A stretch of 64,000 nt of DNA. Source: Acidimicrobiia bacterium (GTDB lineage: Bacteria; Actinomycetota; Acidimicrobiia; IMCC26256; PALSA-610). How positions within the stretch are numbered: position 1 is the stretch's first letter; each line of letters opens with the position of its first letter. This document shows, one piece after another, positions 12,917 through 39,458 of the stretch. The notes below the pieces were generated by a model. That model saw only the letters and a list, made by a program, of their open reading frames with translations, was not told where the DNA came from and made no database searches. A program made the position numbers and the translations under genes. The stretch lies in contig JBBSEC010000004.1 of assembly GCA_038240075.1 (NCBI GenBank), positions 9,674 to 73,673 on the forward strand. Direction: 5' to 3'.

Positions 12917-12938
12917 TGTCCGCGATCGTGACACGCAT

Positions 12939-13982: not shown

Positions 13983-14004
13983 CGCCGCACCTCCGGAAAC
14001 CGCG

Positions 14005-14052
14005 CCTTGGTACTGCGCCCATGTCGTATGCGTAGAAAGTGCAGTACCAAGG
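14005..14052. repeat. 12-bp perfect inverted repeat with 24-nt loop in convergent intergenic region
   Basis: CCTTGGTACTGC (14005-14016) and GCAGTACCAAGG (14041-14052), in a locally A/T-richer stretch between two gene ends. Confidence 0.5.
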
Positions 14053-14099
14053 AGGTCGGGGCACGCGGCGAACCGTGCGGAACGCCCCTGCCCATCGCG

Positions 14100-15275: not shown

Positions 15276-15441
15276 GGCCGAGAGTCTGCACCACTGGCTC
15301 GCTGCGCCAGTCGTCGAGATCGCCGCCCCGCCGGCTATCGACCCGAGAACCTCGGCCGACAGATCAGCGACAAGGATGGGCATCCTGGTCGGAGACAGCT
15401 GACCGGGCGCGATCGCTTCCTTCAGCGCGATCATCGCGGAC

Positions 15442-16152
15442 ATGGTCGACAGCGCACAGAAGGTCGCGATCATCACCGGAAGTTCGCGGGGCATCGGCGC
15501 CGGGCTGACCGCGGCGTACCGTCTACGAGGCTGGGGCGTCGTCGGGAGCTCGCTCACGGGCAAGCCTTCGGACGACCCGGGCGTGCTCGTCGTCGGCGGC
15601 GACATCTCCGAGCCCGCTACCGCCGAACGGATCGTCACCGAGGCGCGGGAGCGATTCGGCGTATCGACACGCTGATCAACAACGCCGGCGTATTCATTTC
15701 GAAGCCGTTCAGAATACGCCGCGGCCGACTACGCGTCGGTGGTCGGAGTGAACGTCACCGGCTTCTTCGCGCTGACGCAACGCGCGATCGCCGAGATGCT
15801 GGAGCGCGACGGCGGACACGTTGTGAACATCACGACCACGCTCGTCGATTACGCCGATTCGAATGTACCGGCCGCGCTGACGGCACTCACGAAGGGCGGC
15901 CTGGCCGCGGTCACGAAGTCGCTCGCGATCGAGTACGCGACGCGCGGCATTCGGGTCAACGCCGTTTCACCGGGCGTCATCCAGACGTCGACGCGCGACC
16001 CCGAGGCCTACGACGCGCTCGGCGCGCAGCAGCCCATCGGTCGCGTGGGCCAGGTGCGCGACATCGTGGAAGGCGTCCTGTTCCTCGAGTCGTCACCGTT
16101 CATCACCGGCGAGATCATCCACATCGATGGCGGCGGGATCGCGGGCCACTAG
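15442..16152 (+). pseudogene. Short-chain dehydrogenase/reductase interrupted by two compensating frameshifts
   Basis: The N-terminal piece (15442..15675; TGSSRGIGAG) and the C-terminal piece (15739..16152; VNAVSPGVIQT) are in the same frame. The NNAG segment RIDTLINNAGVFISKPF (~15659-15709) is only readable in another frame, and TGA at 15673-15675 stops the main frame. Confidence 0.75.
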
Positions 16153-16907
16153 CTGCGTCCTCGCGCCGCCCAGGCACGAGCAGTCACCGCGAACGGTGCC
16201 GCTGGCAACATCTCGCGGCAGCGCTCGCTGAGCTCGCCTTGCCGGATCCCGTCGAGTCCCGCGACGTGTACACCCGCCGGGCCGACCCCAAGCGTGAACG
16301 GCTCCCACCAGTCCTCGAACGTCGGGTGCTCGACGGTGATCCGGAGCGCGCGCTCCTCGATCGCTTCGAGTCCGGCTTCTCCGAAGAGCTGGGCGAGGTG
16401 ACCTTCGCGCGCCCCGGCCAGCCGAGACTCGTCGTCGACGTCGGGATCGAGCGTGCGTGCCGCCTCCCAGAAGACGCTGAGCGGTCCCTCACCGCCGTGG
16501 TGATCCCAGACGCATGCGGCCACGATGCCGCCATCACGGGTCACGCGTGCCATCTCGCGCAAACCCACCACCGGCTCGCGCATGAAGTGGACGACGAGCT
16601 GCGCCAACGCGGCATCGAAGGCCTGATCATCGAACGGGAGGCGCTCCGCGCTCGCTTTGCGCACGTCGACCGTGGGATACCGCGCGTGCGCCGCCGCGAC
16701 GAAGCTGTCGGAAGGATCGACCGCGGCGATGGACGCGGGGCCCAGGCGCCTGACGAGCTCGGCAGTCAACGAACCCGGGCCGCATCCGACATCGAGCACG
16801 CGCGTCGCGTCGGCGGCCTCGGCGAAGTCCACGAACACAGGAGCGAGCGGCCCGGAATACCGGCCCATGAACCGGTCGTACGCATCGGCTGCGACCGCAA
16901 AGCTCAT
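16149..16907 (-). CDS. Class I SAM-dependent methyltransferase
   Basis: ORF 16149..17117 trimmed to the ATG at MSFAVAADAYDRFMGRY. SAM motif I VLDVGCGPGSL. Confidence 0.8.
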   Translation of the reverse strand: MSFAVAADAYDRFMGRYSGPLAPVFVDFAEAADATRVLDVGCGPGSLTAELVRRLGPASIAAVDPSDSFVAAAHARYPTVDVRKASAERLPFDDQAFDAALAQLVVHFMREPVVGLREMARVTRDGGIVAACVWDHHGGEGPLSVFWEAARTLDPDVDDESRLAGAREGHLAQLFGEAGLEAIEERALRITVEHPTFEDWWEPFTLGVGPAGVHVAGLDGIRQGELSERCREMLPAAPFAVTARAWAARGRS

Positions 16908-16921
16908 GGTGGGGAAATTAG

Positions 16922-16967
16922 TGGAGTTGACGGGACTTGAACGCACGACTTGTCCGCCGCGAACGTC
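16922..16967 (-). repeat. Degenerate copy of tRNA-Ala 3' segment (candidate ancient att site)
   Basis: Hand alignment to 39546-39591 gives 39/46 identities in the same orientation. No matching tRNA 5' half is adjacent. It lies in the 133-nt gap between the methyltransferase and CMD genes. Confidence 0.5.
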
Positions 16968-17040
16968 GTACGGCAGTGGCACAAGCCCGCGCATCAGACG
17001 GCACCATCGAATACGGTCGACGAGACGAAAGGGAGGTGCC

Positions 17041-17436
17041 ATGGCTGAGAGTGACGCCCACGCGACCGGGCGCGAGACGCGACGGGAGTTGATGGGAGAC
17101 GCGATGGTCGATCGCATGGCTCAGGACGCCTATGACGACCCGATCATGTCCGACTTCGTTGACTACGCGACCGAGGCGCTGTGGGGTCTGCTGTGGTCGC
17201 GCCCCGGCCTCGACAAGAAAACGCGCACGCTCATCAGCGTCGTGTCCACCGCGACGAACGCGCGGTGGGCGGAGCTCGCGATGTACCTGCCAATGGCGCG
17301 GCGGCAGGGTTGGACCGAGGCCGAGCTCAGCGAGGTGCTCCTTCACCTCGCCGGGTATATCGGAATGCCCGCGACGCGCGAGGCGATGCTGACCGCGAAG
17401 GAGGTGTTCGCGGAGATGCGCAGCGAGGGCGCGTAG
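17041..17436 (+). CDS. Carboxymuconolactone decarboxylase (AhpD-like) family protein
   Basis: Tail of ORF 16657..17436 from an ATG preceded by GAAAGGGAGG. MAESDAHATGRETRRELMGD... with the CMD-type core LDKKTRTLISVV...LHLAGYIGMP. Confidence 0.8.
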   Translation: MAESDAHATGRETRRELMGDAMVDRMAQDAYDDPIMSDFVDYATEALWGLLWSRPGLDKKTRTLISVVSTATNARWAELAMYLPMARRQGWTEAELSEVLLHLAGYIGMPATREAMLTAKEVFAEMRSEGA

Positions 17437-17536
17437 TGCGGGCGTTGCGGACTAGCTGCACTACCAGCGAACGGCTGGCCACGCGACTGCTCGCCGCCCA
17501 AGACTGGTGGACGCAGGAGCGAGCCCGCGCCGCGAC

Positions 17537-19069
17537 TCAGTCTGGGAGCGGCGACGGTTCCATCACGTCGAACAACAGCGGTTTCGCCGGCGGCGCGTCG
17601 AGCGGTACCGCGGCGCGCCGGTGCCAGAGCACGGGCGCGCCGTCGACCGCGCGCGCGAGGACCCAGCGCCGCGTCAGCCGCAGACCGCAGTTCGGAACCG
17701 ATCGGGGCGCGATCTCGAAGTACGCCGGCACGTGTCCGCTGCCGTCGGTGAAGAAGGGTGAGCGCGGCGGAGGGAAGGGAACGGGATCGTCGGCGCGCAG
17801 GTTGGCGAGCCGGTGGGGAACGAAGCGCGCGGGGCCGCTGCCCGCCTCGAGAAGGTACGGAAACCAGGGCTTTTCCATGGGTCCGGTCGGTTGGTAGTCG
17901 AGCGGACCGGTCGGCAGCTTGTCGGCCAATTCGGCGGTGCTCACCGCGATCTCGTCGGCGCCGAGTGGGGGCACAATGCCCGCGACCCGGCGCTCGACAC
18001 CCCACAGCACGTTGGCTTCCTCGTCGACACCGATCGCGACTTCGTCGAAATCGTCGCCGACCAAGGGAGTGGTCGCGAGCACCGCGACGAGCATCGGCGC
18101 CGGCCCGAGGGGGCTCGACGACGGCGCGCTGACGCGTTGGAGCGACCAATCTCCGGGCGGCGCAACTGGATACGAGTGACCGAATCCGTCGATGATCTGC
18201 GCGGTCGGCACGCCGACGACCGTCGCGACGTCGGCAGGCACAGGGAAGACGAACCAGTCGTTGGTGTGCGAGCACACGATGTCGATCAGCAACATCGTCG
18301 CCAGGTGCGCGCGATCGGGTGGGTAGCCCGCGATGTCGACGGAATGATCTTCTATCTGCCACCAGCGCGGCGCGGGCGCGCCGGGGAACGTGAGTCGCGT
18401 AGGCACGGCTCTGACGTCTTGCTGTTCCAGCTGGGCCGGCACTCCGATCATCGTCGCCGACCACCAGTCGAGCTCGCCGCCCCGGTGTCCCTCCACGAGC
18501 ACGCGTCCGCCCCCTGCGGGCCACGATCCGTCGTAGGCCAGCTCGGGCGGGCGCCACATGTTCGAGCGCAGAGCGGGAACATCGGCGAACAGGCTCGCGG
18601 GCAACGCGAGCTCTGCGCGCGCGAGCCAGATCGCGCGGCCGTCGTACTCACCTTCGCGAGTCACGGTCCCGTCGGCTGCCTCGGCGCGGTTGAACCGGTC
18701 GTAGGGCGGGGCGAGATCACGGCAGCGCAACTCGGGGCGATCCCCGACCGCGGCCGCGCTGCGGCGACCGAGCTCGACGCGCCGACGCGGTGTCCACCAG
18801 TCGTCGGGTTCGCCCTCGATCAGCGACTCCGCAGGCACGTTCTCAGGGAGCGCGCCCGGACGCGCGTCGATATTGCTGACGCGCGCGGCAACCACCGTCG
18901 AGACGGCGAGCACCGGCGAAGAGGCGTTCTCGCCCTGGTGCTCGCCGAGCTGCCACTGCCGGCCGAGGAACCACACCGGGTCGGCCGACTCGGCCGCGAA
19001 GCCGCGGTCGAGATCGCCGAGCGGAGCCTGCGGCTCGATGCGCCGCACGACGTCGAAGCGCTGCGTCAT
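17537..19069 (-). CDS. Orphan operon gene 6: 510-aa protein of unknown function
   Basis: ORF 510 aa. Its ATG overlaps the stop of the upstream gene (ATGA at 19066-19069). No signal peptide, TM segment or P-loop seen. Distinctive N-terminal segment WFLGRQWQLGEHQGENASSPV. Confidence 0.75.
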   Translation of the reverse strand: MTQRFDVVRRIEPQAPLGDLDRGFAAESADPVWFLGRQWQLGEHQGENASSPVLAVSTVVAARVSNIDARPGALPENVPAESLIEGEPDDWWTPRRRVELGRRSAAAVGDRPELRCRDLAPPYDRFNRAEAADGTVTREGEYDGRAIWLARAELALPASLFADVPALRSNMWRPPELAYDGSWPAGGGRVLVEGHRGGELDWWSATMIGVPAQLEQQDVRAVPTRLTFPGAPAPRWWQIEDHSVDIAGYPPDRAHLATMLLIDIVCSHTNDWFVFPVPADVATVVGVPTAQIIDGFGHSYPVAPPGDWSLQRVSAPSSSPLGPAPMLVAVLATTPLVGDDFDEVAIGVDEEANVLWGVERRVAGIVPPLGADEIAVSTAELADKLPTGPLDYQPTGPMEKPWFPYLLEAGSGPARFVPHRLANLRADDPVPFPPPRSPFFTDGSGHVPAYFEIAPRSVPNCGLRLTRRWVLARAVDGAPVLWHRRAAVPLDAPPAKPLLFDVMEPSPLPD

Positions 19070-22000
19070 AGCTCGGCCGCCAACGAGAGATCGAGGCCGG
19101 TACGCCTCGCCATCGGCTGCGGTGCGATCGGCGCGCCGGCGGCGAAATCTTCAACTCCGAGTGGTCCCGCCACACGCGCGTGCGCGAGGGCGCGCGTCTC
19201 GATGACGATGTCGACGAGGGTCGGGCCGTCGAGCGGTTGATCGACATCGGGCGGAACTGCCAGCAGCACCGCTTGCGGCGCGCGGGCTGCGGGTGCGTTG
19301 AACCCGACCGCGGCGGTGAGGACCCGATCGCCGGGCGCTTGCTTCGCGCCCGAACGGGACGCGGGAATCGTTTCGACGAAATCATCGGCCAAACCGACCG
19401 CGACCGTGTCGCCGACGGGGCCGGCCGGGTTCGCGAACGCGGCCGGCGGCCCGAACGCGGCGACGAGACGCGTGGCGGGGTCGCCGCCGGCCGGCGCCGC
19501 CGTGATCTGCCACACGTCGCCGGGCCGGTCGAGGCGCCCGGTGAACGGCGTTGCGTCGAGCTGGTACGCATCGATACCCGCGAGCCGTGGTCGTACCGCC
19601 GCAACGATACCCAGCCACTCCTCGAGCTCGGCGCCCGTCGGCGCCTGCAGGGGTGCGAGGGTTGCCGCGGGTCGCCGCGCGAGCACCGGCCACGGCGCGC
19701 CGGGACACGCGAGCGCAACGATGGCGCGCGCGAATCCGCGCGCGTCGAGGCCCGCGGCCTCGGATGGTTCCGGCGTGCCGGCCGGATCCGACGCGGTCGG
19801 TTCGCGCGGCGTGGCGTGCAGCCGCTCGCCGAGCGCGTCGATCGCGCGCGCCATCACCGAGTCGGGTGATTCGCCGGGCGCGGGTGTGGGTGTGACACCC
19901 CACGGTCGCAGGCTCACGAGCAACGCAACCGCGTCGGCCCCCGGCACCTGCGCCGCGACGCGCAGGGCCTTCGCCGATTCGCGCAGCCGTCGGTAACGCG
20001 CCAGCAGCTCGTCGAGCGGAACGTCGCCGGCGTCGGCATCCGCGTCGCCGACCCACGGGTCGCCGCGCAGCGCGAGCAGGATGCCCGCACCGGTGTCGAG
20101 CGCGCTCGGCCGCGTCGTCACTGCGGTGCCACTCACGGAGTCGATCACCATCTGGTCGAGCGCGGCGGTGCCCAAGGCAATCGCGTCGGCCGGTTGCAAG
20201 CCGAGGTCGGCGAGCGTCACCGGGAGATCGCCCGACCCGGTCGACGCCGTCCACGTCCACGGCACAGCGCCGAGGGCGGTGTCGAGGTGGTCGGCGACGG
20301 CGGCGTCGGCCAACGCGGCCGGTCGTGTCACTGCCGCCGGATCCGAGAACGGCAGCGCCACGAGCACGGTCGTACGCGCCGCGCGTCCCGGACGCGGCGA
20401 ACGAACGACATCGAGATCGGGAGGCAGAGCCAGACCGGCCGCCGCTTCCATCGAACGCCGGGCCGCGTCCGGGCGGCCGAGGATCACCTGGTGCACTCCG
20501 TCGGCGACGAGCAGATCGCTGTAGGCGTCGACAACGAGTTGCAGCCCGAGGATCTGGTCCCGTTCCGCCGCTGTGAACATCGAGAGATCGGCGCCCGGCT
20601 CGAGCATCGCGAGTCCGTCGCAGACGCGGCGTTGCTGCGCGTCGTTCCCGAGCGGGAACTGCTTGCGTGCGAGGTCGATCCGATCGCGGCGGTCGAGAAT
20701 CGCCTCGACGCGGCGCCCGAGTGCCTCACCGGGATGCACGCCGAGGCGCACGTCGTCGGCGAGGCGAACCGCGGCGGCGGTCGTCGCGGAGTCGAGATGC
20801 ATCTGCCACCGCGCGTCGGGATCGTGGATGGCCTTGTCGCGGAGCACGGCCATCGTGCGCGCTTGCGCGTCGGAAGTCGCGAGCAGCAACCCCGCGGGCG
20901 TCGGTCCCGGTGTACCGACGAGTGGTCCGTCGACCCAACCGTAGATACCCGACGCGCTCGGCGCGCCGAGGCGGCGCATGTCGAGGAGCCGTCGCCACGC
21001 GATACCCGTGACCCATGGGTCGATGCGGTGCGACGCGGTGTCGAGCAACGCGCGAAACGCGAGCTCGAGGTCGGGAGGGTTGTCCGCGGCGATCGACGCG
21101 ACGGCCTTGACGGTCATGTCGCGTGCGTTGCCCGCCGGCCCGCCTGCACCGGCACCACCGCCGAAGATCAGATCTTCGAGCACCGTTCGCGGCAGCACGC
21201 CGTCGACATCGTTCACGACAACCGGGTCGAGCACGGTTCCCGGCCCCGCGCCGATCGCCGCGTGACCAACTGCGACGAGCAGCGAACGCACGATGAGCCG
21301 AATGAGCAGTGAGTCGGGTGTGTCGTACCGCTCGCTGAGGTTCGGCATTCGGAACGGCTGGAACAGCTCCAACGGCTGGAGGAACTCGCCCCACTGTTCG
21401 TGCTCCGCGACCTCGGTGATCCGATCGAGCATCTTGGCGACGAGGTTCGGTTCGCCCTTCGGGTTCCACATCACGGGATCGACGAGCGCGATCTCGAGCG
21501 GTCCGGTGTCGCTGATCGCGAAGTAGGGCCGGCCGGGCATGCCGACGAGATCGACGAGCGCGCGTGCTTGATCGCGCCACCACTCGTCGAGTTTCGCCGG
21601 TTGATTCACGAATCGTTCGGCCAGCTCGAGCGGCCACAACCACCGGACCCCGAAGCGGTCGCTCCACGGAACGTCGCCCAGCAGGTCGAGCCAGCGGCGC
21701 GCGTCGGCCGCGGTGGTCGTGCCGCGCGCCTCGGCTGCGCTCGCAGCCGCGGCTCGCAGCCTTTGCAGCGGTGCCGTGAGCATCGCTTCGACGGCCGGAT
21801 CGCCGGGCGCGGCCTGCCATCGCGCCAGCGCGGTCGCGGGGAGGATCCCGTAGGGCTGGTCGCCGACGCGCACCGCGGGCAACGGCCCGAGGGGCCGCAG
21901 GTTGTCGGCCGCCCACGCGCCGGCTTCGTGCACGGCATCGGGATTCCAGTTCCACAGATCGATCGCGGCGAAGCCCCAGAGTGCGGGCCACAGCGCGGCG

Positions 22001-22842
22001 ACCAATGCACCATCGGGTGTCGCGCCACGCTCGCCGCCGAGGATCGGGCCCACACCGTCGGTTGCGCCCGTGAGTGCGAAGCCGAGCTGACCGGCCACGC
22101 CGGCGTCGGGCGCTTCGTCGACGATCGCGCGCCACTGCGCGCCGGTGCCGGTGAGGTCGACGGTGGGCGCGCCCGCGACGGTGTTGGTCGCGGTCGCGGC
22201 GTCGAGCACCGCGAGCCGGCCCGCGTCGCGATGCGCTGCGAACAACGGAGCGGGGTCGACGCCTTCGTCGATCCCGACGACGATCAACGCCTCGATCGCG
22301 CTGGTGGGATCGAGCTGATCGAGATCGATCTCCGCCCCGAGCCCGACGGCGAGCGCGCGTTTCCACGACGTCGACCAACGATCTTCGACCTTCAGGGTCG
22401 GGTCGATGGTGAGCTCGTCGACGAGCACCGATTGCTCGTGCAAGAGTTGCGGCACGCCGCCGACGAGCGCCCACACCTGATAGGCGCTCGGGAAGCTCGA
22501 CACGGTCGCGAAGCCGGGAGCGGCGTCGGGCGTGGTGCCGCCGTGCACACGTCGAGGTGCGGTGCTGCGATCGAAGCCCGACGGAAACGCGCGAACGAGC
22601 CACGCGGCGCGGGCGCCGCCGAATCGCTGCGCGAGGATGGCGAAGCCCTCGTCGAAACCGGCCGGGCCGGCGCTCCACAACGCTTCGAGCGCGTCGAGCT
22701 CGTCGTCGGTGACGCGCGGATCGTGCCGGTCGATCTGTACCTCGTCGGGAACGACGCGCAGCAGGAGGAGCCAACGCCCGTCGACGTAGTCGGCGACCGT
22801 CTCGAGGCGAACGGGGCAGAGAACTCCGATCGGCGGGCTCAC
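19066..22842 (-). CDS. Orphan operon gene 5: 1258-aa protein of unknown function
   Basis: ORF 1258 aa. Its GTG start overlaps the upstream stop (GTGA at 22839-22842). Composition is coding-like (Asp/Leu/Ala/Trp-rich rather than Arg-rich). No recognised domain. Confidence 0.8.
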   Translation of the reverse strand: MSPPIGVLCPVRLETVADYVDGRWLLLLRVVPDEVQIDRHDPRVTDDELDALEALWSAGPAGFDEGFAILAQRFGGARAAWLVRAFPSGFDRSTAPRRVHGGTTPDAAPGFATVSSFPSAYQVWALVGGVPQLLHEQSVLVDELTIDPTLKVEDRWSTSWKRALAVGLGAEIDLDQLDPTSAIEALIVVGIDEGVDPAPLFAAHRDAGRLAVLDAATATNTVAGAPTVDLTGTGAQWRAIVDEAPDAGVAGQLGFALTGATDGVGPILGGERGATPDGALVAALWPALWGFAAIDLWNWNPDAVHEAGAWAADNLRPLGPLPAVRVGDQPYGILPATALARWQAAPGDPAVEAMLTAPLQRLRAAAASAAEARGTTTAADARRWLDLLGDVPWSDRFGVRWLWPLELAERFVNQPAKLDEWWRDQARALVDLVGMPGRPYFAISDTGPLEIALVDPVMWNPKGEPNLVAKMLDRITEVAEHEQWGEFLQPLELFQPFRMPNLSERYDTPDSLLIRLIVRSLLVAVGHAAIGAGPGTVLDPVVVNDVDGVLPRTVLEDLIFGGGAGAGGPAGNARDMTVKAVASIAADNPPDLELAFRALLDTASHRIDPWVTGIAWRRLLDMRRLGAPSASGIYGWVDGPLVGTPGPTPAGLLLATSDAQARTMAVLRDKAIHDPDARWQMHLDSATTAAAVRLADDVRLGVHPGEALGRRVEAILDRRDRIDLARKQFPLGNDAQQRRVCDGLAMLEPGADLSMFTAAERDQILGLQLVVDAYSDLLVADGVHQVILGRPDAARRSMEAAAGLALPPDLDVVRSPRPGRAARTTVLVALPFSDPAAVTRPAALADAAVADHLDTALGAVPWTWTASTGSGDLPVTLADLGLQPADAIALGTAALDQMVIDSVSGTAVTTRPSALDTGAGILLALRGDPWVGDADADAGDVPLDELLARYRRLRESAKALRVAAQVPGADAVALLVSLRPWGVTPTPAPGESPDSVMARAIDALGERLHATPREPTASDPAGTPEPSEAAGLDARGFARAIVALACPGAPWPVLARRPAATLAPLQAPTGAELEEWLGIVAAVRPRLAGIDAYQLDATPFTGRLDRPGDVWQITAAPAGGDPATRLVAAFGPPAAFANPAGPVGDTVAVGLADDFVETIPASRSGAKQAPGDRVLTAAVGFNAPAARAPQAVLLAVPPDVDQPLDGPTLVDIVIETRALAHARVAGPLGVEDFAAGAPIAPQPMARRTGLDLSLAAEL

Positions 22843-25238
22843 GGCGCGGAACCCATCAATGCCGCGCCGCTCAGGAATACGCGTACCGGTGAGATGAACT
22901 TGACCTGCGCGTACACGCCGCCGTCGGGATCGACCGCAACCGGATCATCGACGCCGAACTGGTAGCCGTGCGGTACCTGCTCGATCACGACCCAGTACTC
23001 GTCGGCGACGGCCGGTGTGATCGGGAAGCCAAAGAACGGGAGGTCGCGTTCGACCTCGCCGACGAGCACGGGCAGGACGCGCAGGGCGGGCGTCGGATCG
23101 GGCGGAGGGTCCGAGAACGCGGGGTCGTGCACGAGGTAGATCAACGTGTCGGGGTACCGCCGGAACAGTTGGGTCCGGAGGACCACGACGAACTCGCTGC
23201 TGGGCGCGTCGGCCGGCAGGTGCTCACCGAGACTCGACCCCGCGTCCCAAGCGGCGATCCCGACGATGTCGTCGTGCGCGGTGCCGGCGTCGGGATGCAC
23301 GAGATCCCAGAACCGCCGTACCGGCGTGCAACCGGTTCGCACCGGGACGTTGCGCCATCGCAATTCGCCGACGAGTTGCTGGTTGAGGCCGACGAGAAAC
23401 GCGTCGACGAAGACGGGGTTCGTGCTCAGACCGGTGACGTGATCCGGTTGCAGGACCTCGGCGCCGGGAAGCAACCACCGCTTCGCGTGATCGCGCAGGA
23501 AGCGCCACGCCGGCACGTCGATGTCTGCGCACGGCTCCGGCGGCGCGAGCAGCGGTGCTTCGAGCCCTTCGATCGGACCGAGCACGCGCGTGCGCGCCGG
23601 GGCATCGTCACTCGTCGGGTCGACGGCGGCGTCGAGGACTCCGACCAGCGCGCCGATATCGAGCGGTTGGCATTCGTGTCGCGGCGGTCCCGGCACGCGG
23701 CCTGCGATGTCGACGAGGCTCTCGTTGTCGATCCCCTCGGCCTGCAACCGGCCTTCGCGCGCGAGGTCGAGAAACGACCGCCCGTCGCCGCGGCCCTGCT
23801 CGGCGAGCACCCGGCCGGCGCCGTCGCCGTCCGGAAGTCCGCCCGGCGGTTTCGGTGCCTCGGGGCAGCGGTTCGCGGCATCGACCAGGTCGACTTCGCT
23901 GAGCGTGCTCCCGTGCGGCCGCCGGCCGGTCGAGGGCCGCATCGCGCGCCGGGCCGCACCGGAGAAGAACGCGGCCGAGAACGGCCGGCTCGCGGTCGTG
24001 AGCAGCTCGAGCACGGTGTGGTCGCCCTCGGCAACCATGCCGGCGAGCGACGGACCGTAGAGCAGGAGCCGCCGTTCGGGCGCCACGGGCATGCGTCGAC
24101 GCCAGAGCGACGACGACGCGGCCAAGCCCAACGCGAGGCTCCGCACCCGTTGCGCGACGGGGAGAATCGCGCCCCACTTGCGGCGCGCGCTGTCGAGCAG
24201 GAGGTCTTGCTCGCGAACCGCGCACCACGCGCCGAGGCCCGCAACGCCACGGCGGCGCGGATCGTCGTCGAGCTCCGCCTCCCACGTCGGCACCGGTGCC
24301 TTCGGATCGACCCACAGGTCGCCGTAGGTCGGGAGTCCGAGCACCGGTGGTCGCAGCGGAAGGGACCCAACCGCGCGTCGGAGCGCGAGATCAGCAGCGA
24401 TATCCGGCGCGATCGCGCCGTCGGCCGCGGGTACCGGGTCGCTGGTGGTGAGCGCACCGCGGATCGCGAGATCGTGACCGGGCTGCGCGCGGTACGACAG
24501 ATCGACGACGCCGAGCCCCGCGGGATCCTGCGGCTCGAGCGCGGCGGCCATCGTCTTGAAGTCGAGGAGGTCGGTGGCGGTCGAGAACGACCAGCGGTGG
24601 TAGCAGGGCAACGTGACCGGATCGCCCGGGTTCTGTGGCCACGCCGGCGCGCCGGCCGCGTTGAACGCGGGCACGAGCACCGCGGTCCACTTCCAGACCT
24701 GCCCGGCCGGCGTCTTCTCGAGCGGTCGCACCGACAACACGCGCGCGAGTGGTGGCGACACTCCGTCGTCCTGCATGTGCGCCCACCGACTCGACCGCGA
24801 AAGGTCATAGAGCTTCATGAGATCGGGGCTCAACGTCACGAGCCCCGACGGGAGCACCGTCAGCTCACCGTCGGCTTCGGTGCCGACCACGAGCACGAGC
24901 CACGGGCGCACACCGCCACCGGGCTCGTTGCCGACCGGCGTGTACCGCCACGGCAGCTCGGCGGGAACCAGCTCGATGTACGGGCTGTGCCGCTCCTCGA
25001 ATCCCACTGCGCCCGGTTGGGGCATCACCGTGCGGATCGCGTTGGCACCCAAGCCCGCGATGTCGCCGGGACCGAGCAACTCCAGCGGGACGGCAGCCGA
25101 CGCGGTTCCCGTTCCGCCGTCGAGTTGGTGCACCGTCGCTCCGACCGTGACCGTCGTCGCCAGCCGCCCCAACGGCGTGAGCGTTCCCGACTGCGCGACG
25201 GCCGGCCGTCGCCAACCTTGGAAGTTGATGTCGCTCAT
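22839..25238 (-). CDS. Orphan operon gene 4: 799-aa protein of unknown function
   Basis: ORF 22839..25385 trimmed to the ATG at MSDINFQGWRRPAV, 19 nt after the upstream stop and preceded by GGTGGA. Contains an LPWRYTP segment. No recognised domain. Confidence 0.75.
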   Translation of the reverse strand: MSDINFQGWRRPAVAQSGTLTPLGRLATTVTVGATVHQLDGGTGTASAAVPLELLGPGDIAGLGANAIRTVMPQPGAVGFEERHSPYIELVPAELPWRYTPVGNEPGGGVRPWLVLVVGTEADGELTVLPSGLVTLSPDLMKLYDLSRSSRWAHMQDDGVSPPLARVLSVRPLEKTPAGQVWKWTAVLVPAFNAAGAPAWPQNPGDPVTLPCYHRWSFSTATDLLDFKTMAAALEPQDPAGLGVVDLSYRAQPGHDLAIRGALTTSDPVPAADGAIAPDIAADLALRRAVGSLPLRPPVLGLPTYGDLWVDPKAPVPTWEAELDDDPRRRGVAGLGAWCAVREQDLLLDSARRKWGAILPVAQRVRSLALGLAASSSLWRRRMPVAPERRLLLYGPSLAGMVAEGDHTVLELLTTASRPFSAAFFSGAARRAMRPSTGRRPHGSTLSEVDLVDAANRCPEAPKPPGGLPDGDGAGRVLAEQGRGDGRSFLDLAREGRLQAEGIDNESLVDIAGRVPGPPRHECQPLDIGALVGVLDAAVDPTSDDAPARTRVLGPIEGLEAPLLAPPEPCADIDVPAWRFLRDHAKRWLLPGAEVLQPDHVTGLSTNPVFVDAFLVGLNQQLVGELRWRNVPVRTGCTPVRRFWDLVHPDAGTAHDDIVGIAAWDAGSSLGEHLPADAPSSEFVVVLRTQLFRRYPDTLIYLVHDPAFSDPPPDPTPALRVLPVLVGEVERDLPFFGFPITPAVADEYWVVIEQVPHGYQFGVDDPVAVDPDGGVYAQVKFISPVRVFLSGAALMGSAP

Positions 25239-25257
25239 CGGTTCCACCGCCGTTGCG

Positions 25258-27588
25258 TCACAGCACTCCTCCGAGCGCGACGCGGTCGTCGACCCGCGCG
25301 GCCGCGAGCGGTTGTGCAGGTGACGACAACGCGACCTGCGTGTGCGCCTCGGTCTCGCTCGAGACGGATTGCGCAGTCCCACCACCGGCCACCGACCACG
25401 CCTTCTCCTTGGCCCGGTCGATCGTGAGTACAGCGTCGTCGTTCGTGAGCGTCGGCGCGCCGGCCCGTCCGGCGAGGCGCGACGCCAACAGGCTCCCGAA
25501 CGCGAGCAGCGCGTGCGATCCGAGCGCCGTCAGCGACTTGTCGTCTTCGCGTCGCACGTACACCTCGAAGTCGCTCGACTTCGCTACCACCGGTCCCATC
25601 GCCGGCACGAGCGCGAGCACGCTTCCGCCCGGGAGCTCGGCGAACGAAGGCTGGTTGAGGCTCTCGGCCGCGGTGAGGTGCCGGAACGAAGCCGGGCTGA
25701 ACCACTCGTCGCTCGCGCCGGTCTGGTTGAGCGTTCCCGACGGCGCGTCGAAGCTGAGCTGGCCCGCGTCGCTCGCGGGCGCGCCCCGCAACTCCATGAT
25801 CGTCGTGTCGAACGGGAGCACCGACTGACTCCATTGCAACGTACCAGTCGGCGCGACCAACGCAACCTGCGGCGCGTCGGCGAGCCCGGAGCGTGGGGCC
25901 ATCTTCACCGCGGGATCGGTCACGTCGACGCCGCGCAGATTGGCGGGGCGGTCGAGCTGCTCCTTGATGATGTCGTGCAACGAAACCGGCGGCGGTCCCT
26001 GATCGACGGAGTCGCCGATGGTGAACGTCTCGCCCCACGACACCGACAGGAACAGGATGTCGACTTCGAGCGACGCGCTGATCGACAAGGGGCCGGGGCC
26101 GGAGATCGTTCCCGAAACGGTGATCGATGCGAGGTCGACACCGTCGAAGCGCACCGCGAAACCGGCGCTGTAGTCGACCTCGAAGTGGAACGGGCGGAAC
26201 GTCGCGATCGCGTCGAGCGCGACGAAGCCGGCCGCCTCGACCGGTCCGGCCGAGATGCCCGCCTCGAGCCGGCCGCCGAACTGCAGGGTGTTGGTCGTAA
26301 CGGCGAAGTAGCCCTCGGCGCGGATCGTCACGCCGGGAACGGGGCTGTCGAGCGTGATCGCGAGCCGCGCCAACGCCCGCCCGATGCTCGGCTCGGGTGT
26401 GAAGCCGGGGAAGAAGCCGCCGATCGAGAGCAGCATGTACGGCCGGTCGCCCCAGCTGAGCCGGAAGGCGGCGTCGCCGGTGATGCGCAGCACGCCGAGC
26501 ACGGAGGAGTTGACGAGCGAGGCGTCGATGCTCACGAGCGCGGCGACGAAATCGATCACGCCGAGCACGTCGAGCTCGAGGTGCACGAGGTTGATTGGTC
26601 CCGGCGGAAGCGCGATGACGAGTCGTCCGACCAGCACGATGCGGCGCGGGCCCGGCAGCTCGATCAGCAGACCCAGATCCGCCTGCGCAATTGCCGGTCC
26701 CGTGGGCGAGAGCTGTCCCCACGTGAGCTCGAACGTCGGCCCGAACACCGCGCTGCCGTCGCGCGGCGGAAAGAGCTCTCCGAGCGAGGCGAGGATCGAC
26801 GGCGCCTTCGCGACGGGATCGTCGGGGAAGAGCGCGTCGGTGACACTGCCGTCGGAGAGCTTGCGGCGCGCAGCGTCGACATCGATGGTGCGATTGATGC
26901 CGACGAGCCCGCCGATCGCGCCGATCGCGAAGCCGAAGCTGAGCTGGATGCCGGGGAAGAAGCGCGCACCGAGCAACACGAGCACCGAGAGGTCGCCGGA
27001 AACGTGCTCGATGATGCCGAACGCGTGCACGTCGACGATCCCGAGCTTCAGCTCGAGCACACCCGACAGTCGATCGCCCTGCGCGGCGAGGTAGCCGCCG
27101 CCGCCCATCGGCGCGAGGTCGAGATCGAGGCCGACCGAGCCGAGTGACGCGTAGCCGAGGAACACCGGCGGGGGCGCGCCGGCGACGATCGCAGGAAACG
27201 CGGCGTCGACCGGCGGCACCTGCACGCGCAGGAGCAGCGGTCCGAGGTTCACCTGCTCGTCGATGCCGTTCGCGCCGACGCTGCCGAGCAGCTCGCGCAG
27301 CCCCGGAATCGGGAGCATGTCGAGCATCGGCTTCAGGAGCCCGGCAAGATCCGCGCCCGCCACGGCCTGGAGCGCCGTGGCCCAATCGCCCGCCGCCGCG
27401 TTGTACGCGGTGATCGCGGCGTTCAGCGCAGGCCCCGCAACGGGCGGCTGCGGCAGGGCGATGACATCTCCCATCGCGGCGACAAGCTCGTCGCGTGCCG
27501 TCGTGAGCTGCGTTCGTATCGGCCCGGCGGGGACGAGGTTCTCGGCGATGCCCGACATCGTCTGGACGAGAGGGCGCGGGTCGGTCAT
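25258..27588 (-). CDS. Orphan operon gene 3: 776-aa Gly/hydrophobic-rich, strand-like protein of unknown function
   Basis: ORF 25258..27924 trimmed to the ATG at MTDPRPLVQTMSGIAE, which overlaps the upstream stop by 1 nt (TGATG). Motifs FGFAIGAIGGLVGINRT and LLSIGGFFPGFTP. The alternate-frame ORF 25235..27817 is Arg/Ser-rich shadow. Confidence 0.75.
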   Translation of the reverse strand: MTDPRPLVQTMSGIAENLVPAGPIRTQLTTARDELVAAMGDVIALPQPPVAGPALNAAITAYNAAAGDWATALQAVAGADLAGLLKPMLDMLPIPGLRELLGSVGANGIDEQVNLGPLLLRVQVPPVDAAFPAIVAGAPPPVFLGYASLGSVGLDLDLAPMGGGGYLAAQGDRLSGVLELKLGIVDVHAFGIIEHVSGDLSVLVLLGARFFPGIQLSFGFAIGAIGGLVGINRTIDVDAARRKLSDGSVTDALFPDDPVAKAPSILASLGELFPPRDGSAVFGPTFELTWGQLSPTGPAIAQADLGLLIELPGPRRIVLVGRLVIALPPGPINLVHLELDVLGVIDFVAALVSIDASLVNSSVLGVLRITGDAAFRLSWGDRPYMLLSIGGFFPGFTPEPSIGRALARLAITLDSPVPGVTIRAEGYFAVTTNTLQFGGRLEAGISAGPVEAAGFVALDAIATFRPFHFEVDYSAGFAVRFDGVDLASITVSGTISGPGPLSISASLEVDILFLSVSWGETFTIGDSVDQGPPPVSLHDIIKEQLDRPANLRGVDVTDPAVKMAPRSGLADAPQVALVAPTGTLQWSQSVLPFDTTIMELRGAPASDAGQLSFDAPSGTLNQTGASDEWFSPASFRHLTAAESLNQPSFAELPGGSVLALVPAMGPVVAKSSDFEVYVRREDDKSLTALGSHALLAFGSLLASRLAGRAGAPTLTNDDAVLTIDRAKEKAWSVAGGGTAQSVSSETEAHTQVALSSPAQPLAAARVDDRVALGGVL

Positions 27589-29339
27589 CAGTCGATCCGG
27601 TCCACGACCAGGGTCCCGTCGGACGCGCGATGAGCAAGCCAGTGGTTCTGACCACCGAGCATGAACGGTGCGATCGCCGTCCAGAGCGCGCTCCAGGTCG
27701 TGCTCCCGAGCTCCGCGAGCGAGATGCCACCGAGGGGGACGCCCGGGGCGAATGGCGCACCGAAGTCGCCGGCGAACACCCAGCGGGTGTCGCCGGTGAC
27801 CGAGTTGTTGAGCGCAAGGATCATCTCGTTGCGGGCGAACACCGGCACCATCTGGGTCGCGAACGGCAGCGTGGCGAGCCGGGCCACTTCGGTGAGTGCC
27901 GAGCCGTCGTCGGGGATCGCCCACGCGACCACGGTTCCGCTGTCGGGCTTGTAGCCGACGAGCAGCGCGCCACCGGGCCGGACTCCAGGGATCACGGGAT
28001 CGACGCGGTCCATCGCCGCGAACGCGGTGAAGCCGGATTCAATCGTGCCGTCGAAGCGCGTGATCGTGCCGGTTCCGTCGTCGGCAACCCGGTCGATTGC
28101 CGCGCGCCCACTGATCGTCTTGTACGAGAACAGGAACGGGCTGCCCGCGCACATGTACGACGTCATCGCCGACCAATCGGTCGTCCACTGCGCCGGCCAC
28201 AACGTCACGATGCGCGTCCCGTCGCCCGCGACCTCGTCGATCTCGACGCGTCCGGTGAGCGCCGAATAGATCAACAGACCGACTCGCGCGTTCAACGCGA
28301 GCGGCACGGTCGCGGTGACACCGGTCGACCAGGTGTGCGAGAACGTCGGTGTGAGCGAAGACGCGTCGGCGGCGATGGCCCACAACTGCGCGGAGCCGCT
28401 CGCAGGGTCGTACACGAGTGCCGACGGGCCGGCGTCGAGTTGGAGCGTCGTCAGCTGCAGGATGCTCGGCGGGTTCACCGCGAACCGGTTTCGTTCGATC
28501 GTCACCGGCCGGAAGGTGCGCAGGGTGGCCCGCGCCTGCTCGATGCAGACGGTGCAGAACTGGGTCGCGATGTGGCGCATCTTGCAGTCGCCCGCGGGCC
28601 GGTACAGGTCGCAGTGTGCGTGACGCGCACCTTCGAACAACCCGATCTGATCGGGTGGCGACGCGGCGCCGTTCACGCTGGGTTTCGAGCAGTCGGGATT
28701 CCTCACGCGTGTGAGGCCGGGGGTGACGAGGTTGTGCCACGGAACTTTCGCGAGATCGGTGATCTTCGCGACGTTGGGCTCGGCTGGTGGCGGGCCGGAG
28801 AAGTGAGCCGTATCGGTTGTGTCGGCGTCGTACTCGTCGGCGAGACCGAATGCGCTGTGCCCCAATTCGTGGATCACGACGTCTGCAATCGAAGGGTTGC
28901 CCGAGCCGACGATCGAGACACCGTTGGGTGCCGACGCGAAGTCTCCCGCGACCTGTGCGATCACAACCGGATAGTGGTACTGCGAGATCTGCGCGCGGCA
29001 GAGGGTGTGCACGGCCGCCTCGTCGCACCGGATGACGCGCGCCGCGCCCGGCAGCCGGCCGTCGAAGAACGTGTTGCGCACCGTTGCGGTGGCCGGAACG
29101 TCGACACCGGAATCGGTCGACGCAACGTCGATACGGAAGACGTTCATCGCGGGCCACAGCTCGCGGAACGGAAGTTTCAGTCTCAGCGACACGACGACCC
29201 CCGTCACGAGGTTGACGAAGTCGCTCAGTTGCGGCGCCTGGTAACCCTCCGAGAGGAACACGAGGTTGAAGCGGCGATCGACCGGTCCGTGGTCGACGAC
29301 CTTCGTGATGCCGAGAACGACCCCGTCGGCGGCGGTCAC
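27588..29339 (-). CDS. Orphan operon gene 2: M64-like (IgA-peptidase family) zinc metallopeptidase fused to a ~300-aa repeat (propeller-like) domain
   Basis: ORF 27588..29846 trimmed to the GTG overlapping the upstream stop (GTGA at 29336-29339). N-terminus DHGPVDRRFNLVFLSEGY and VVIHELGHSAFGLADEYD match the M64 signature. The C-terminal half carries ~6 repeats of the [LF]L.Y...G....D.V.DDG type. No signal peptide. Confidence 0.75.
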   Translation of the reverse strand: MTAADGVVLGITKVVDHGPVDRRFNLVFLSEGYQAPQLSDFVNLVTGVVVSLRLKLPFRELWPAMNVFRIDVASTDSGVDVPATATVRNTFFDGRLPGAARVIRCDEAAVHTLCRAQISQYHYPVVIAQVAGDFASAPNGVSIVGSGNPSIADVVIHELGHSAFGLADEYDADTTDTAHFSGPPPAEPNVAKITDLAKVPWHNLVTPGLTRVRNPDCSKPSVNGAASPPDQIGLFEGARHAHCDLYRPAGDCKMRHIATQFCTVCIEQARATLRTFRPVTIERNRFAVNPPSILQLTTLQLDAGPSALVYDPASGSAQLWAIAADASSLTPTFSHTWSTGVTATVPLALNARVGLLIYSALTGRVEIDEVAGDGTRIVTLWPAQWTTDWSAMTSYMCAGSPFLFSYKTISGRAAIDRVADDGTGTITRFDGTIESGFTAFAAMDRVDPVIPGVRPGGALLVGYKPDSGTVVAWAIPDDGSALTEVARLATLPFATQMVPVFARNEMILALNNSVTGDTRWVFAGDFGAPFAPGVPLGGISLAELGSTTWSALWTAIAPFMLGGQNHWLAHRASDGTLVVDRID

Positions 29340-29746
29340 GGCGTCTCGGCGAACGGGTGCGTGAGGAGCTCGACTGCCGGGCCGTCGAGCTGTGTCGCGG
29401 GCGATCCCATGACGGCGACCGTGACTCCGTCGGTGATCGCCGGAACGACCGTGACGACCGTTCCACCGGCCTGGTCGTCGGCGACGTTCGCCGGGCTGGT
29501 GTCGTCGGGCAGCTCGACGACTGCGGCGAGCGGATTGTTCGTCACGAGCTGCCACAGCACGGCGCCGGTGACCGTGCGCAACTCGTACCAGTAGCCACTG
29601 AACGGAGCGTCGGCTGGGTCGAGCACGACACCGGGCAGCGCGGTCATCGCGACGCGGACACCGTCGAGGAGACTCAGCGTGCCGTCGGCAGCCCACGCAT
29701 ACGTGAACCGGATGGCGTCGGCTTCGGCGACGAACTCCTCTGGCAT
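29336..29746 (-). CDS. Orphan operon gene 1: 136-aa protein of unknown function
   Basis: ORF 136 aa. AAGGA lies 9 nt upstream of the ATG. Its stop overlaps the start of the peptidase gene. Confidence 0.65.
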   Translation of the reverse strand: MPEEFVAEADAIRFTYAWAADGTLSLLDGVRVAMTALPGVVLDPADAPFSGYWYELRTVTGAVLWQLVTNNPLAAVVELPDDTSPANVADDQAGGTVVTVVPAITDGVTVAVMGSPATQLDGPAVELLTHPFAETP

Positions 29747-29838
29747 TCCTTCGCGTCCTTACAAGGTCCGCGCCCGCACCGCGCATCGGTTTAACACAGC
29801 ACGCCCGTCTCGGCCAGGGTTTCTCAAACGGGCCCGTG

Positions 29839-31011
29839 TCACGCAAGCTCGATCGGAGTGGGCGCCGGCGGGGGCGACGGCTCCGACGGCGTGCTCGCCG
29901 CGGCTGGGTCGTCGCCCGTGGCGGGCTCGCGCAGCAGGCGCGCGACGAGCGCCGCGACCGCGACCATCACCGCGCCGAACACGATCGCGAACGCGCCGTA
30001 CACGGACGCGGCGTGCGAATTGCTTCCGCCGCTCGTTGTCGAGTCGGTGACCTTGCCGGCCAGCAGCACTGCTCCGACCGTGGCGGCGAACGCGCCGACC
30101 CACACCGTGAAGCGGCGGTGCGACTGGGTGCCAACCGACCCGACGAACAGGCCGGCTGCGACACTCAGCAAGCCGGCGACGATCACGCTCTTCGCCTCCG
30201 CACCGAGGAAGATCACCGCCTCGACCATGGCGATGACGCCGGGGAGCACGGCCGCGGTGGCGATGCCCCTTCGGCCGCGCGCGTCGAGGACCGCGACGCC
30301 GATGAGGTAGACGATGCCGAACGCGAGCGCGACACCACCGATCTCGCCGTCGTTGGGCTTGTGCGGTTCCCCGACGATCGGCGGGAACGAGTCGGGACTG
30401 ATCGACCCGTCCGGGTTGGTCGTGAAGGTGCTGCTGCCGCTGCCCGAACCGGTGTCGAACGTGAACGACGAGGCGAACGGCGAGCGCGCGACCGTGTTCG
30501 TGTCCGCGACCTCGACCGTTGCCCAGGTCAATCCCATCAGCAATGCGAGGGACAGGAGCAATGGGCGGGCTTTCGCCGGACCGAACGCAAAGCCAAGGAG
30601 CCAGGCGACGATCGTCACCGCGAAGAAGGGGCGCAGGTCGCTCGGGCTGTGCACGCGAGGGAGCTGCACGAACGCCATCGCTCCCAGGACACCGATCGCG
30701 ATCATCGCGATCCCGGCCGACTCCAACAACGTCGGCAGCGCGACGACGAGCGCGAGTCCGGCCACAATCAACACCACGCACAACGCGAGGCCGGCCCAGC
30801 CCACCCCGTGCCCGTGATCGGGGTACAGGTCGACGCCGAACGCGATCACGCCGCTCGCGGCGAGTACGCCGGCCCCACCGGCGATTGCATTGGCGAGCCA
30901 TGGCGTCGCACGCTCCGCGGACCGCCACGACACGACGCGTTCGGGTTGTGTCGGCGCCCCCACCGGCGGCTGTTCCACTGCGAGAACGCTATAGCGCCGA
31001 CGACGCTGCAC
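29839..31011 (-). CDS. Polytopic integral membrane protein of unknown function
   Basis: ORF 390 aa (GTG start, exact start uncertain). Multiple long hydrophobic segments, a central Ser/Gly/Thr-rich loop (FTFDTGSGSGSSTFTTNPDGS) and a Pro-rich C-terminal tail. Sits 92 nt upstream of the orphan operon on the same strand. Confidence 0.65.
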   Translation of the reverse strand: MQRRRRYSVLAVEQPPVGAPTQPERVVSWRSAERATPWLANAIAGGAGVLAASGVIAFGVDLYPDHGHGVGWAGLALCVVLIVAGLALVVALPTLLESAGIAMIAIGVLGAMAFVQLPRVHSPSDLRPFFAVTIVAWLLGFAFGPAKARPLLLSLALLMGLTWATVEVADTNTVARSPFASSFTFDTGSGSGSSTFTTNPDGSISPDSFPPIVGEPHKPNDGEIGGVALAFGIVYLIGVAVLDARGRRGIATAAVLPGVIAMVEAVIFLGAEAKSVIVAGLLSVAAGLFVGSVGTQSHRRFTVWVGAFAATVGAVLLAGKVTDSTTSGGSNSHAASVYGAFAIVFGAVMVAVAALVARLLREPATGDDPAAASTPSEPSPPPAPTPIELA

Positions 31012-31055
31012 GGTTGATCACCGCTTCGCTGCGGCGGATCGGCTTGCTGCGGAGA

Positions 31056-31101
31056 GTGGAGGTGATGGGACTTGAACCCACGGCTTCTACGTTGCGAACG
31101 T
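31056..31101 (-). repeat. Direct repeat of tRNA-Ala 3' segment (att-type junction)
   Basis: GTGGAGGTGATGGGACTTGAACCCACGGCTTCTACGTTGCGAACGT matches 39546-39591 at 45/46 positions. No tRNA 5' half follows. Confidence 0.8.
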
Positions 31102-33163: not shown

Positions 33164-33206
33164 GTGGAGGTGATGGGACTTGAACCCACGACTTCTACGT
33201 TGCGAA
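33164..33206 (-). repeat. Direct repeat of tRNA-Ala 3' segment (distal att site of the intact element)
   Basis: GTGGAGGTGATGGGACTTGAACCCACGACTTCTACGTTGCGAA is identical to 39546-39588 (43/43). Confidence 0.85.
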
Positions 33207-33310
33207 GGCGTCTGAGGGAGTTCGGAGGGTCGCGTCAGGTTCGTTTGGCCAGGTCAGATCGGGTGCGTCGTTCGCACGACCGCACTGATTCCAGGGCGTT
33301 TCGCGGATTC

Positions 33311-34099: not shown

Positions 34100-34100
34100 G

Positions 34101-39441: not shown

Positions 39442-39458
39442 GCGGGCGAAGCTAACTC

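Follow-up and report, generated by a model that had tools for sequence, protein, structure and literature searches.

A translationally coupled DUF6603 gene module with interchangeable hydrolase genes, conserved in Bacteria and Archaea

Introduction

Phage particles, tailocins, contractile injection systems and Tc toxins commonly act at cell surfaces without carrying export signals. Tc (ABC) toxins, composed of TcA, TcB and TcC, consist of giant acidic subunits encoded in a coupled operon on islands or plasmids, without an ATPase or signal peptides. They combine a membrane-engaging component with receptor-binding immunoglobulin-like (Ig-like) decorations and a variable enzymatic payload. Here we describe an operon of six minus-strand genes, g1 to g6, at positions 17537-29746 of a 64,000-nucleotide (nt) stretch from an Acidimicrobiia bacterium (GenBank assembly GCA_038240075.1, contig JBBSEC010000004.1, positions 9,674 to 73,673 of the forward strand), which we call the window. 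The operon has a 4+2 composition, with a core of g3-g6 and an add-on of g1 and g2. The core amounts to ~3,300 amino acids (aa) and, together with g1 and g2, the window encodes ~4,060 aa.

The logic of the complex that we propose below may resemble that of Tc toxins and tailocins, without being homologous to either. The likeness to Tc toxins lies in the overall logic only, with no similarity in sequence or fold, and none of the Tc-type Pfam domains (VRP1, neuraminidase-like, pore-forming, SpvB, RHS, TcB/TcC) is found in g3-g6 or in 55 further family members. In addition, the candidate payloads of the module are separate genes, whereas the Tc payload is a C-terminal hypervariable region. The membrane candidate of the module is a β-sheet protein, in contrast to the α-helical injection channel of Tc toxins, and the module, unlike Tc toxins, is also archaeal. 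Extracellular contractile injection systems and tailocins are likewise signal-peptide-free, island-borne, multi-subunit and adhesin-decorated, with enzymes or effectors attached. The module, however, has no sheath, tube, baseplate, spike or AAA+ ATPase genes; Pfam and PHROGs searches found no contractile-system baseplate (gp25/gp6-like), spike or AAA+ ATPase in the six genes or their neighbours. Like the defence systems collected in PADLOC, such as Zorya and Druantia, the module is large, multi-gene, horizontally transferred and often located beside defence genes, but it lacks a motor, helicase, nuclease and NTPase, and its relatives bear fusions of an extracytoplasmic type.

No characterised system shares the core sequences, the gene set or the folds, which were modelled for g3 and g6. 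An earlier reading of this DNA, made from the sequence only, could not assign the operon to any named system, and library and structure searches give the same answer. We therefore regard the module as a system of a new kind; its families are known only as 'hypothetical' or as DUF6603.

A coupled operon of six genes

The six genes of the operon are as follows.

29336-29746, minus strand: g1, acidic small protein of 136 aa; clade-specific accessory
27588-29339, minus strand: g2, 583 aa, M64-like zinc metallopeptidase with β-propeller-like repeats; clade-specific accessory
25258-27588, minus strand: g3, DUF6603 protein of 776 aa; core subunit 1
22839-25238, minus strand: g4, 799 aa, novel family with the LPWRYTP motif; core subunit 2
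19066-22842, minus strand: g5, 1258 aa, novel Ala/Leu-rich family; core subunit 3
17537-19069, minus strand: g6, 510 aa, novel Trp-rich β family; core subunit 4

All six open reading frames (ORFs) are intact, with no internal stops. The guanine-cytosine content (GC) of each gene is 0.64-0.78 at the first codon position, 0.50-0.54 at the second and 0.84-0.89 at the third (0.85 at the third position of g1), a coding-like pattern typical of the real genes of this genome. The genes are joined tightly. The stop of g1 overlaps the start of g2 in GTGA at 29336-29339, and g2 meets g3 in TGATG at 27586-27590. Between g3 and g4 is a 19-nt gap, CGCAACGGCGGTGGAACCG, at 25239-25257, with a GGTGGA ribosome-binding site inside it. 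The two remaining junctions are 4-nt overlaps, GTGA at 22839-22842 for g4-g5 and ATGA at 19066-19069 for g5-g6. A promoter scan returned 0 sigma-70-like sites, and terminator-like sites occurred at the frequency expected from shuffled sequence. The six genes are real, and their arrangement predicts that they form one co-transcribed unit.

Scanning the translations for motifs revealed no Walker A in any of g1-g6, and among these proteins HExxH is confined to g2 (HELGH, residue 157). The hydropathy scan of g2-g6 showed no signal peptide and no convincing transmembrane helix; a few hydrophobic 19-mers in g3 and g5 fall in predicted β-strands or in the protein interior. These results bear out much of the sequence-only reading. 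The minus-strand ORFs, their lengths and their junctions are as it described them, and the peptide motifs that it quoted are all in place (WFLGRQWQLGEHQGENASSPV in g6, LPWRYTP in g4, LLSIGGFFPGFTP in g3 and HELGH...ADEY in g2). It found no ATPase motif, signal peptide or transmembrane helix, in agreement with both scans. It also took the M64-type motif of g2 for the only enzymatic signature; g2 has a Pfam M64 match and the sole HExxH. Its description of one translationally coupled, multi-subunit unit also holds, with the coupling conserved across phyla. Its extension of that unit to six genes is right for the window and for two metagenome contigs, L091 and L093, where all six are coupled, but the conserved unit is g3-g6.

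Conservation of the four-gene core

With two invariant g6 peptides as seeds, a genome scan yielded 80 loci, and the window proteins were then searched for in these by tblastn. These loci span Actinomycetota, Chloroflexota, Acidobacteriota, Planctomycetota, Verrucomicrobiota, Bacteroidota, Alpha-, Beta- and 'Delta'-proteobacteria and a cyanobacterium; overall, the module extends to more than 10 phyla of bacteria and to haloarchaea. The order and orientation g3-g4-g5-g6 are kept in 66 of the 68 loci with sufficient upstream DNA, and the two exceptions, L015 and L018, look truncated. The sequence-only reading had proposed gene-neighbourhood conservation as a check on its proposal, and the core order is found conserved. 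Neither of the two outcomes that it named as refuting this proposal came about. By tblastn, neither g1, g2 nor either of the two flanking genes was present in any of the 80 loci.

The tight spacing of the core is conserved as well. The gap is at most 30 nt at the g3-g4 junction in 56 of 65 loci (with an overlap in 26), at the g4-g5 junction in 63 of 69 (overlap in 53, by 4 nt in 49) and at the g5-g6 junction in 70 of 78 (overlap in 40). The recurrence of this gene order and of these overlaps in dozens of unrelated genomes is far beyond chance. Several natural proteins of 1,700-1,880 aa are fusions of g5 and g6, a classical indicator of physical contact between the two. An exhaustive profile search further places the g6 family in 3,917 representative clusters (50% identity), 1,551 of them at E <= 1e-30.

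The module also travels on its own. It stands alone, flanked by unrelated neighbours, in Cupriavidus, Tessaracoccus, Frankia and Paraburkholderia, and it is plasmid-borne in Streptomyces, Nocardia and Paraburkholderia. Haloarchaeal plasmids of Salinigranum and Halalkalicoccus carry it too. BLASTP identifies the Salinigranum g4 and g5 as collinear orthologues, LPW and PVxLETRF motifs included, and weaker g6 matches lie on plasmids of Natrinema and Halobellus. No downstream partner gene is conserved: the 43 co-directional genes on that side belong to nearly as many BLAST families, and no Pfam family occurs more than twice among 44 genes scanned. g3-g6 is an autonomous, horizontally mobile, translationally coupled module, and it is under purifying selection across two domains of life.

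A few loci (L073, L076, L079 and L056) show 0.8-2.3 kb gaps or shortened ORFs within the module, which may be frameshifts or decay. From these genomes the module appears dispensable and sometimes lost. On a Streptomyces anthocyanicus plasmid (L104, 14923-16728), a lone divergent g6 homologue of 601 aa (26% identity) adjoins two IS5 transposase genes, has no g3-g5 beside it and looks like a module remnant. Two other Streptomyces plasmids carry homologous pentapeptide-repeat genes (45% identical) near the module, at 15656-17614 in L089 and 29798-31215 in L105; one of them immediately follows g6, and the other is on the opposite strand at a distance of ~13 kb.

The DUF6603 subunit

g3 matches Pfam DUF6603 (PF20248) with E = 1e-93 and 314.8 bits against a cut-off of 27, over profile positions 25-500 of 502, and all 120 listed g3 homologues carry PF20248. 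The sequence-only reading had called the operon almost entirely unrecognisable; this is true of g4-g6, discussed below, but not of g3. A library of 8 million papers contained no mention of DUF6603 or PF20248, and a sequence-profile search of PDB with g3 gave nothing below E = 0.08.

Structure models were made for g3 and g6 with AF2 (AlphaFold2) and compared with PDB and BFVD by Foldseek. The g3 model, built from an 87-sequence alignment (predicted local distance difference test, pLDDT, 82.8; predicted template-modelling score, pTM, 0.70), has an N-terminal helical bundle (residues 1-100), ~24 antiparallel strands (108-524) and a small C-terminal domain. The strands are 10-17 residues long with tight turns between them, forming a β-meander. 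Hydrophobic and polar residues alternate along the strands with a mean difference of 3.07 Kyte-Doolittle units, compared with 1.38 in shuffled sequence, and this strong alternation makes one face of the sheet hydrophobic.

The best PDB neighbour of the g3 model is the lipid-wrapping β-belt of ApoB100 (E = 9e-4 to 6e-3, probability up to 0.99), followed by porins, LptD, SlpA/SDBC, ushers, VDAC and Tom40, which are generic large barrels. All Foldseek neighbours of g3 have template-modelling (TM) scores of at most 0.2 on the query. Like g3, the ApoB100 β-belt, LptD, SlpA/SDBC, porins and ushers are long up-and-down antiparallel meanders with a hydrophobic and a polar face. Unlike the barrels, g3 has an N-terminal helical bundle and no signal peptide, and no match is better than E = 9e-4. 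On the model, the likeness is one of topology, not of homology. An outer-membrane β-barrel is a poor description of g3, as the protein and its orthologues have no signal peptide and occur in single-membrane bacteria and archaea.

The g4, g5 and g6 families

g4, g5 and g6 have no match in Pfam, NCBIfam, PADLOC or PHROGs. PDB sequence-profile searches with g4 and g5 gave nothing below E = 0.08, and 30 g5 and 25 g4 relatives scanned were without a Pfam match. At least 234 homologues of g4 and hundreds of g6 are all annotated as 'hypothetical' proteins. The profiles of g5 and g6 are each unrelated to that of g4, so the test for internal paralogy is negative. g5 has the N-terminal motif VLxPVRLETRF, and g6 the invariant N-terminal motif RQWQxGE. 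Trp, Pro, Gly and Arg make up most of the invariant residues of the core families, a composition that suggests a part in structure and interfaces and not in catalysis.

The g6 model, from a 115-sequence alignment, is mostly β (pLDDT 83.4, pTM 0.79). Its invariant N-terminal 50 residues, RQWQxGE included, are modelled with low confidence, as expected of a segment that folds only on a partner. Foldseek returned no neighbour of g6 in PDB (best E = 0.5) or BFVD (best E = 0.02), with all TM scores below 0.1.

One sequence match of g6 raised the question of a viral origin. The g6 profile matches PDB 9zdk chain S, the tail sheath gp76 of Pakpunavirus P7-1 (PMC12697256), at E = 4.5e-6 over ~150 residues. 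This match, the recurrence of the module on islands and plasmids, and Ig-like decorations in relatives that recall tail fibres would fit a domesticated or mobile virus-like structural module, an adsorption or tail-like apparatus or a particle, in which g6 is distantly sheath-related. The g6 model, however, finds no sheath in PDB or BFVD at the E values given above. In addition, hhalign against an alignment of eight phage sheaths gives a probability of 0.09% and aligns a different segment, and the g6 region that matches 9zdk is predicted to be all-β. We reject g6 as a tail sheath and treat the match as spurious. There is no credible PHROGs match either, the only one being that of g1 at E = 0.029, and tube, baseplate, capsid, portal and terminase genes are absent near the module in the examined loci. 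A virus-like structural module is, on this evidence, an improbable explanation.

Two loci with phage-related features deserve mention. In L102, a patatin gene, an α/β-hydrolase gene and the start of a Phage_sheath_1 gene, possibly of a contractile injection system, lie within 1.7 kb downstream of the module (21435-23417); this sheath neighbour, which would favour a viral origin, occurs in L102 only, 1 of ~100 loci. The sole phage-labelled record with a g6 homologue is MT835531.1 (L088, 'Bacteriophage sp.', from a human faecal sample), which is marked UNVERIFIED, is unannotated and has 75-79% GC. This record is probably a misfiled bacterial contig, and we reject the phage origin that its label would suggest.

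Interchangeable hydrolase genes

g2 matches Pfam Peptidase_M64 with E = 1.6e-26 and 93.7 bits against a cut-off of 26, its best stretch aligning with profile positions 4-201 of 302. It also matches the solved Bacteroides M64-like proteins 3p1v and 4df9 of PDB at ~1e-16, and the M6 domain TIGR03296 below threshold. The peptidase domain occupies about residues 15-275 and is followed by ~300 aa of repeats (Y..xG...I..V..DG) that are β-propeller-like. g2 thus shares HELGH and the downstream ADEY with the M64 (IgA peptidase-like) family but differs from its references in the partial coverage of the profile, in the C-terminal repeats and in its coupling into a DUF6603 operon. It has no signal peptide or lipoprotein sequence. 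g2 is a predicted peptidase and a candidate payload. g1 has matches below threshold only, to DUF4429 in Pfam and to a goF family in PHROGs (the match at E = 0.029 mentioned above), and is possibly a partner, inhibitor or chaperone of g2.

The closest relatives of the operon are the metagenome contigs L091 and L093, whose six proteins are 47-64% identical to those of the window. They keep the coupled six-gene order, with proteins of 137, 581 (M64), 785, 788, 1277 and 498 aa. The g2 orthologue (50% identical) lies directly upstream of the DUF6603 gene in both contigs, and a g1 homologue (47% identical) holds the same position in L091. g1 and g2 are attached to the core in the window's clade only.

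In other lineages, different hydrolase genes are attached to the core in a similarly coupled manner; the accessory-gene statistics cover ~100 loci. S8 subtilase genes are found in L068, L083 and L103: in Cupriavidus and Paraburkholderia the gene overlaps the stop of g6, and in a Kineosporiaceae genome it lies directly 3' of g6. A PhoD-like protein of ~750 aa is encoded directly upstream of a long DUF6603 protein (~1,100 aa) in Frankia, Actinoplanes, Actinomycetospora, Nonomuraea and a metagenome-assembled genome (MAG) (L013, L014, L016, L084, L102 and L107). A 'peptidoglycan-binding' protein of Streptomyces longwoodensis (1,514 aa) is, in its N-terminal part, homologous to this PhoD-like protein. 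In three Chloroflexota genomes an α/β-hydrolase gene follows g6, and two loci have M14 peptidases. S8 and PhoD-like enzymes are usually exported. Those examined here have no signal for the general secretory (Sec) or twin-arginine (Tat) pathway.

Site of action and favoured reading

The clues to where the module acts come from domains fused to the core proteins in other lineages. In haloarchaea, g6 bears two LTD (lamin-tail) domains and g5 contains an inserted BGTF surface domain; a literature search on 'BGTF surface domain' found nothing. Bacterial g6 variants are fused to two PG_binding_1 domains, to TIG domains or to LTD. In S. longwoodensis, g4 has VCBS repeats, and the 1,514-aa peptidoglycan-binding protein is encoded upstream. 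Together with the amphipathic sheet of g3, these surface-domain fusions point to a complex in contact with cell walls, surfaces and membranes. At the same time, no signal peptide or transmembrane helix is found in the core or accessory proteins, in their actinobacterial, proteobacterial and archaeal versions.

Such a complex could serve the producing cell itself, as an envelope structure of the lipid-handling, bridging or surface-layer/adhesion type, with, for instance, lipid transport along the g3 sheet or wall anchoring. The best structural neighbours of g3 are lipid-associated (ApoB100, LptD, SlpA/SDBC), relatives have peptidoglycan-binding and surface domains, and genes for LGFP repeats and M14 peptidases lie near a few loci. 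The proteins, however, have no signal peptides, lipoboxes or membrane anchors. The envelopes of its hosts, which include single- and double-membrane bacteria as well as archaea, are radically different, and the occurrence of the module is rare, patchy and island- or plasmid-borne rather than lineage-wide. We consider a structure of the producer's envelope rather unlikely.

Our favoured reading, to which we give a probability of roughly one in three, is that g3-g6 form a large complex that acts at an envelope, probably that of another cell, in a Sec-independent manner, and deploys hydrolase payloads. The four core proteins would join in a single large hetero-oligomer, which would most likely act outside the cytoplasm of the producer. 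In this complex, g4, g5 and g6 may be the scaffold and surface-binding parts, while the ~24-stranded amphipathic sheet of g3 would engage or breach a lipid layer. The variable hydrolase would be the payload; in the window this role would fall to g2, and g1 would be its partner or inhibitor. The complex would leave the cell independently of Sec and Tat, by lysis or another route. Going further, and more tentatively, the module may be a previously unrecognised class of Sec-independent machine in Bacteria and Archaea, in which the DUF6603 protein inserts into or wraps lipid, adhesin-decorated subunits bind the target and M64, S8 or PhoD-like enzymes are the cargo. Such a machine, made of four novel protein families, would be a new kind of weapon between microbes or of delivery device, without relation to Tc toxins, contractile systems or the known secretion systems. 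The sequence-only reading had left the choice among a surface or secreted assembly, a toxin-delivery complex and a defence module, and the domain fusions favour a surface or secreted assembly or delivery over defence.

Several observations weigh against the favoured reading. The assembly, export and toxicity of the complex are predicted properties that we infer. The Foldseek likeness of g3 is generic and, as far as the model goes, would fit a membrane barrel, a lipid-binding sheet or a soluble β-structure alike. Scans of downstream genes found no lysis cassette or dedicated secretion genes conserved beside the module. Many loci have no obvious payload gene, and the adhesin-type fusions occur in a minority of lineages. 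Lastly, the island neighbours of the module are often defence genes, which fit its main rival equally well.

This rival is an anti-phage or abortive-infection module. Here the core would be a cytoplasmic sensor-effector complex from which infection releases g3 to perforate the cell's own membrane, with the hydrolases as alternative effectors. g3 is compatible with a membrane, interchangeable effector-like enzymes are typical of defence systems, and the sporadic distribution shaped by horizontal transfer, plasmids included, would suit such a function. The neighbourhoods point the same way. An AbiEii gene lies in a neighbouring island segment of the window. Genes of conflict systems (TIR_2, SIR2_2, nSTAND1-WD40, trypsin and Tricorn/PD40) lie at 12256-21455 beside L002/L003, in a 2-Mb Actinomycetes MAG. 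The neighbours of L105 and L107 include NB-ARC and RHS genes, those of L090 AbiE and PIN genes, and those of L089 a CHAT-domain gene and integrases. In contrast, the six proteins match 0 families of PADLOC-DB 2.0, which covers systems to 2023, at E up to 0.1, and no NTPase, nuclease, NADase or recognisable sensor domain was found in them. The peptidoglycan-binding, LTD, TIG, VCBS and BGTF fusions suit a cytoplasmic sensor poorly, and ~3,300 aa of purely structural-looking protein is atypical of defence. We regard a defence function as unlikely, and part of the probability falls to none of the readings considered here.

If the module is a delivery or attack machine, it would be a new type of weapon for soil bacteria and archaea and a possible chassis for protein delivery. 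A role in defence would instead make it a defence system without known enzymatic logic. In both cases, the four core genes and their natural payload variants are a clean experimental target.

Island setting of the operon in the window

The window carries the M64 version of the module in a decayed tRNA-Ala island. Its features around the operon are as follows.

39544-39620, minus strand: intact tRNA-Ala(CGC), predicted by ARAGORN; integration target of the tandem island array
38278-39576, minus strand: tyrosine integrase adjoining the tRNA-Ala (Pfam Phage_integrase, 2e-26)
39546-39591: 46-nt 3' fragment of tRNA-Ala, the copy inside the intact tRNA
33164-33209: 46-nt tRNA-Ala 3' fragment, a further copy of the same repeat family
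31056-31101: 46-nt tRNA-Ala 3' fragment, 98% identical to the tRNA copy; proximal boundary of the operon segment
16921-16966: 46-nt tRNA-Ala 3' fragment, degenerate copy (83%); distal att-like boundary of the operon segment
29839-31017, minus strand: polytopic membrane protein gene, 92 nt upstream of g1 and co-directional, with at least six hydrophobic segments

The array has the hallmarks of a tRNA-integrated island, namely direct repeats of the tRNA 3' end and an adjoining tyrosine integrase. The four fragment copies delimit three segments of ~14.1, 2.1 and 6.3 kb, which appear, from their layout, to have been inserted successively at one tRNA-Ala(CGC). The integrase is retained in the tRNA-proximal segment only. 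The operon segment (16967-31055, 14.1 kb) has no integrase of its own and is the outermost and apparently the oldest of the array. The GC of the window is ~70%, and that of the operon segment is not distinct from the remainder.

The tRNA-Ala fragment repeats that the sequence-only reading saw bounding this region are real, as is the upstream gene that it took for a polytopic membrane protein. This gene has a weak CD20-like match only and is not found upstream of the module in L091, L093 or other loci. The operon segment additionally holds a CMD-family gene, and the adjacent segments carry a PMT_2 glycosyltransferase gene and the AbiEii toxin gene. The latter encodes a nucleotidyltransferase of the AbiEii type (33353-34345, minus strand; Pfam E = 5.5e-6) in the integrase-adjacent segment; an AbiEii/AbiEi pair likewise lies near an archaeal copy of the module (L090).

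Two minor features concern the segment boundaries. A 21-nt repeat, TCGGTTGACAAA(A/T)TGTTGACA, occurs at 33309-33329 and 39457-39477 in copies that are 95% identical. The repeat includes two TTGACA hexamers, and ~70-100 nt separate each copy from one of the tRNA fragments. Possible identities are a duplicated att flank, an integrase arm site and a promoter element. At 16149-17436, two long ORFs overlap on opposite strands, and both contain real domains: a methyltransferase domain at ~16356-16815 on the minus strand and a CMD domain at ~17152-17403 on the plus strand. The degenerate tRNA fragment separates the two domains, which indicates that the maximal ORFs overstate both genes.

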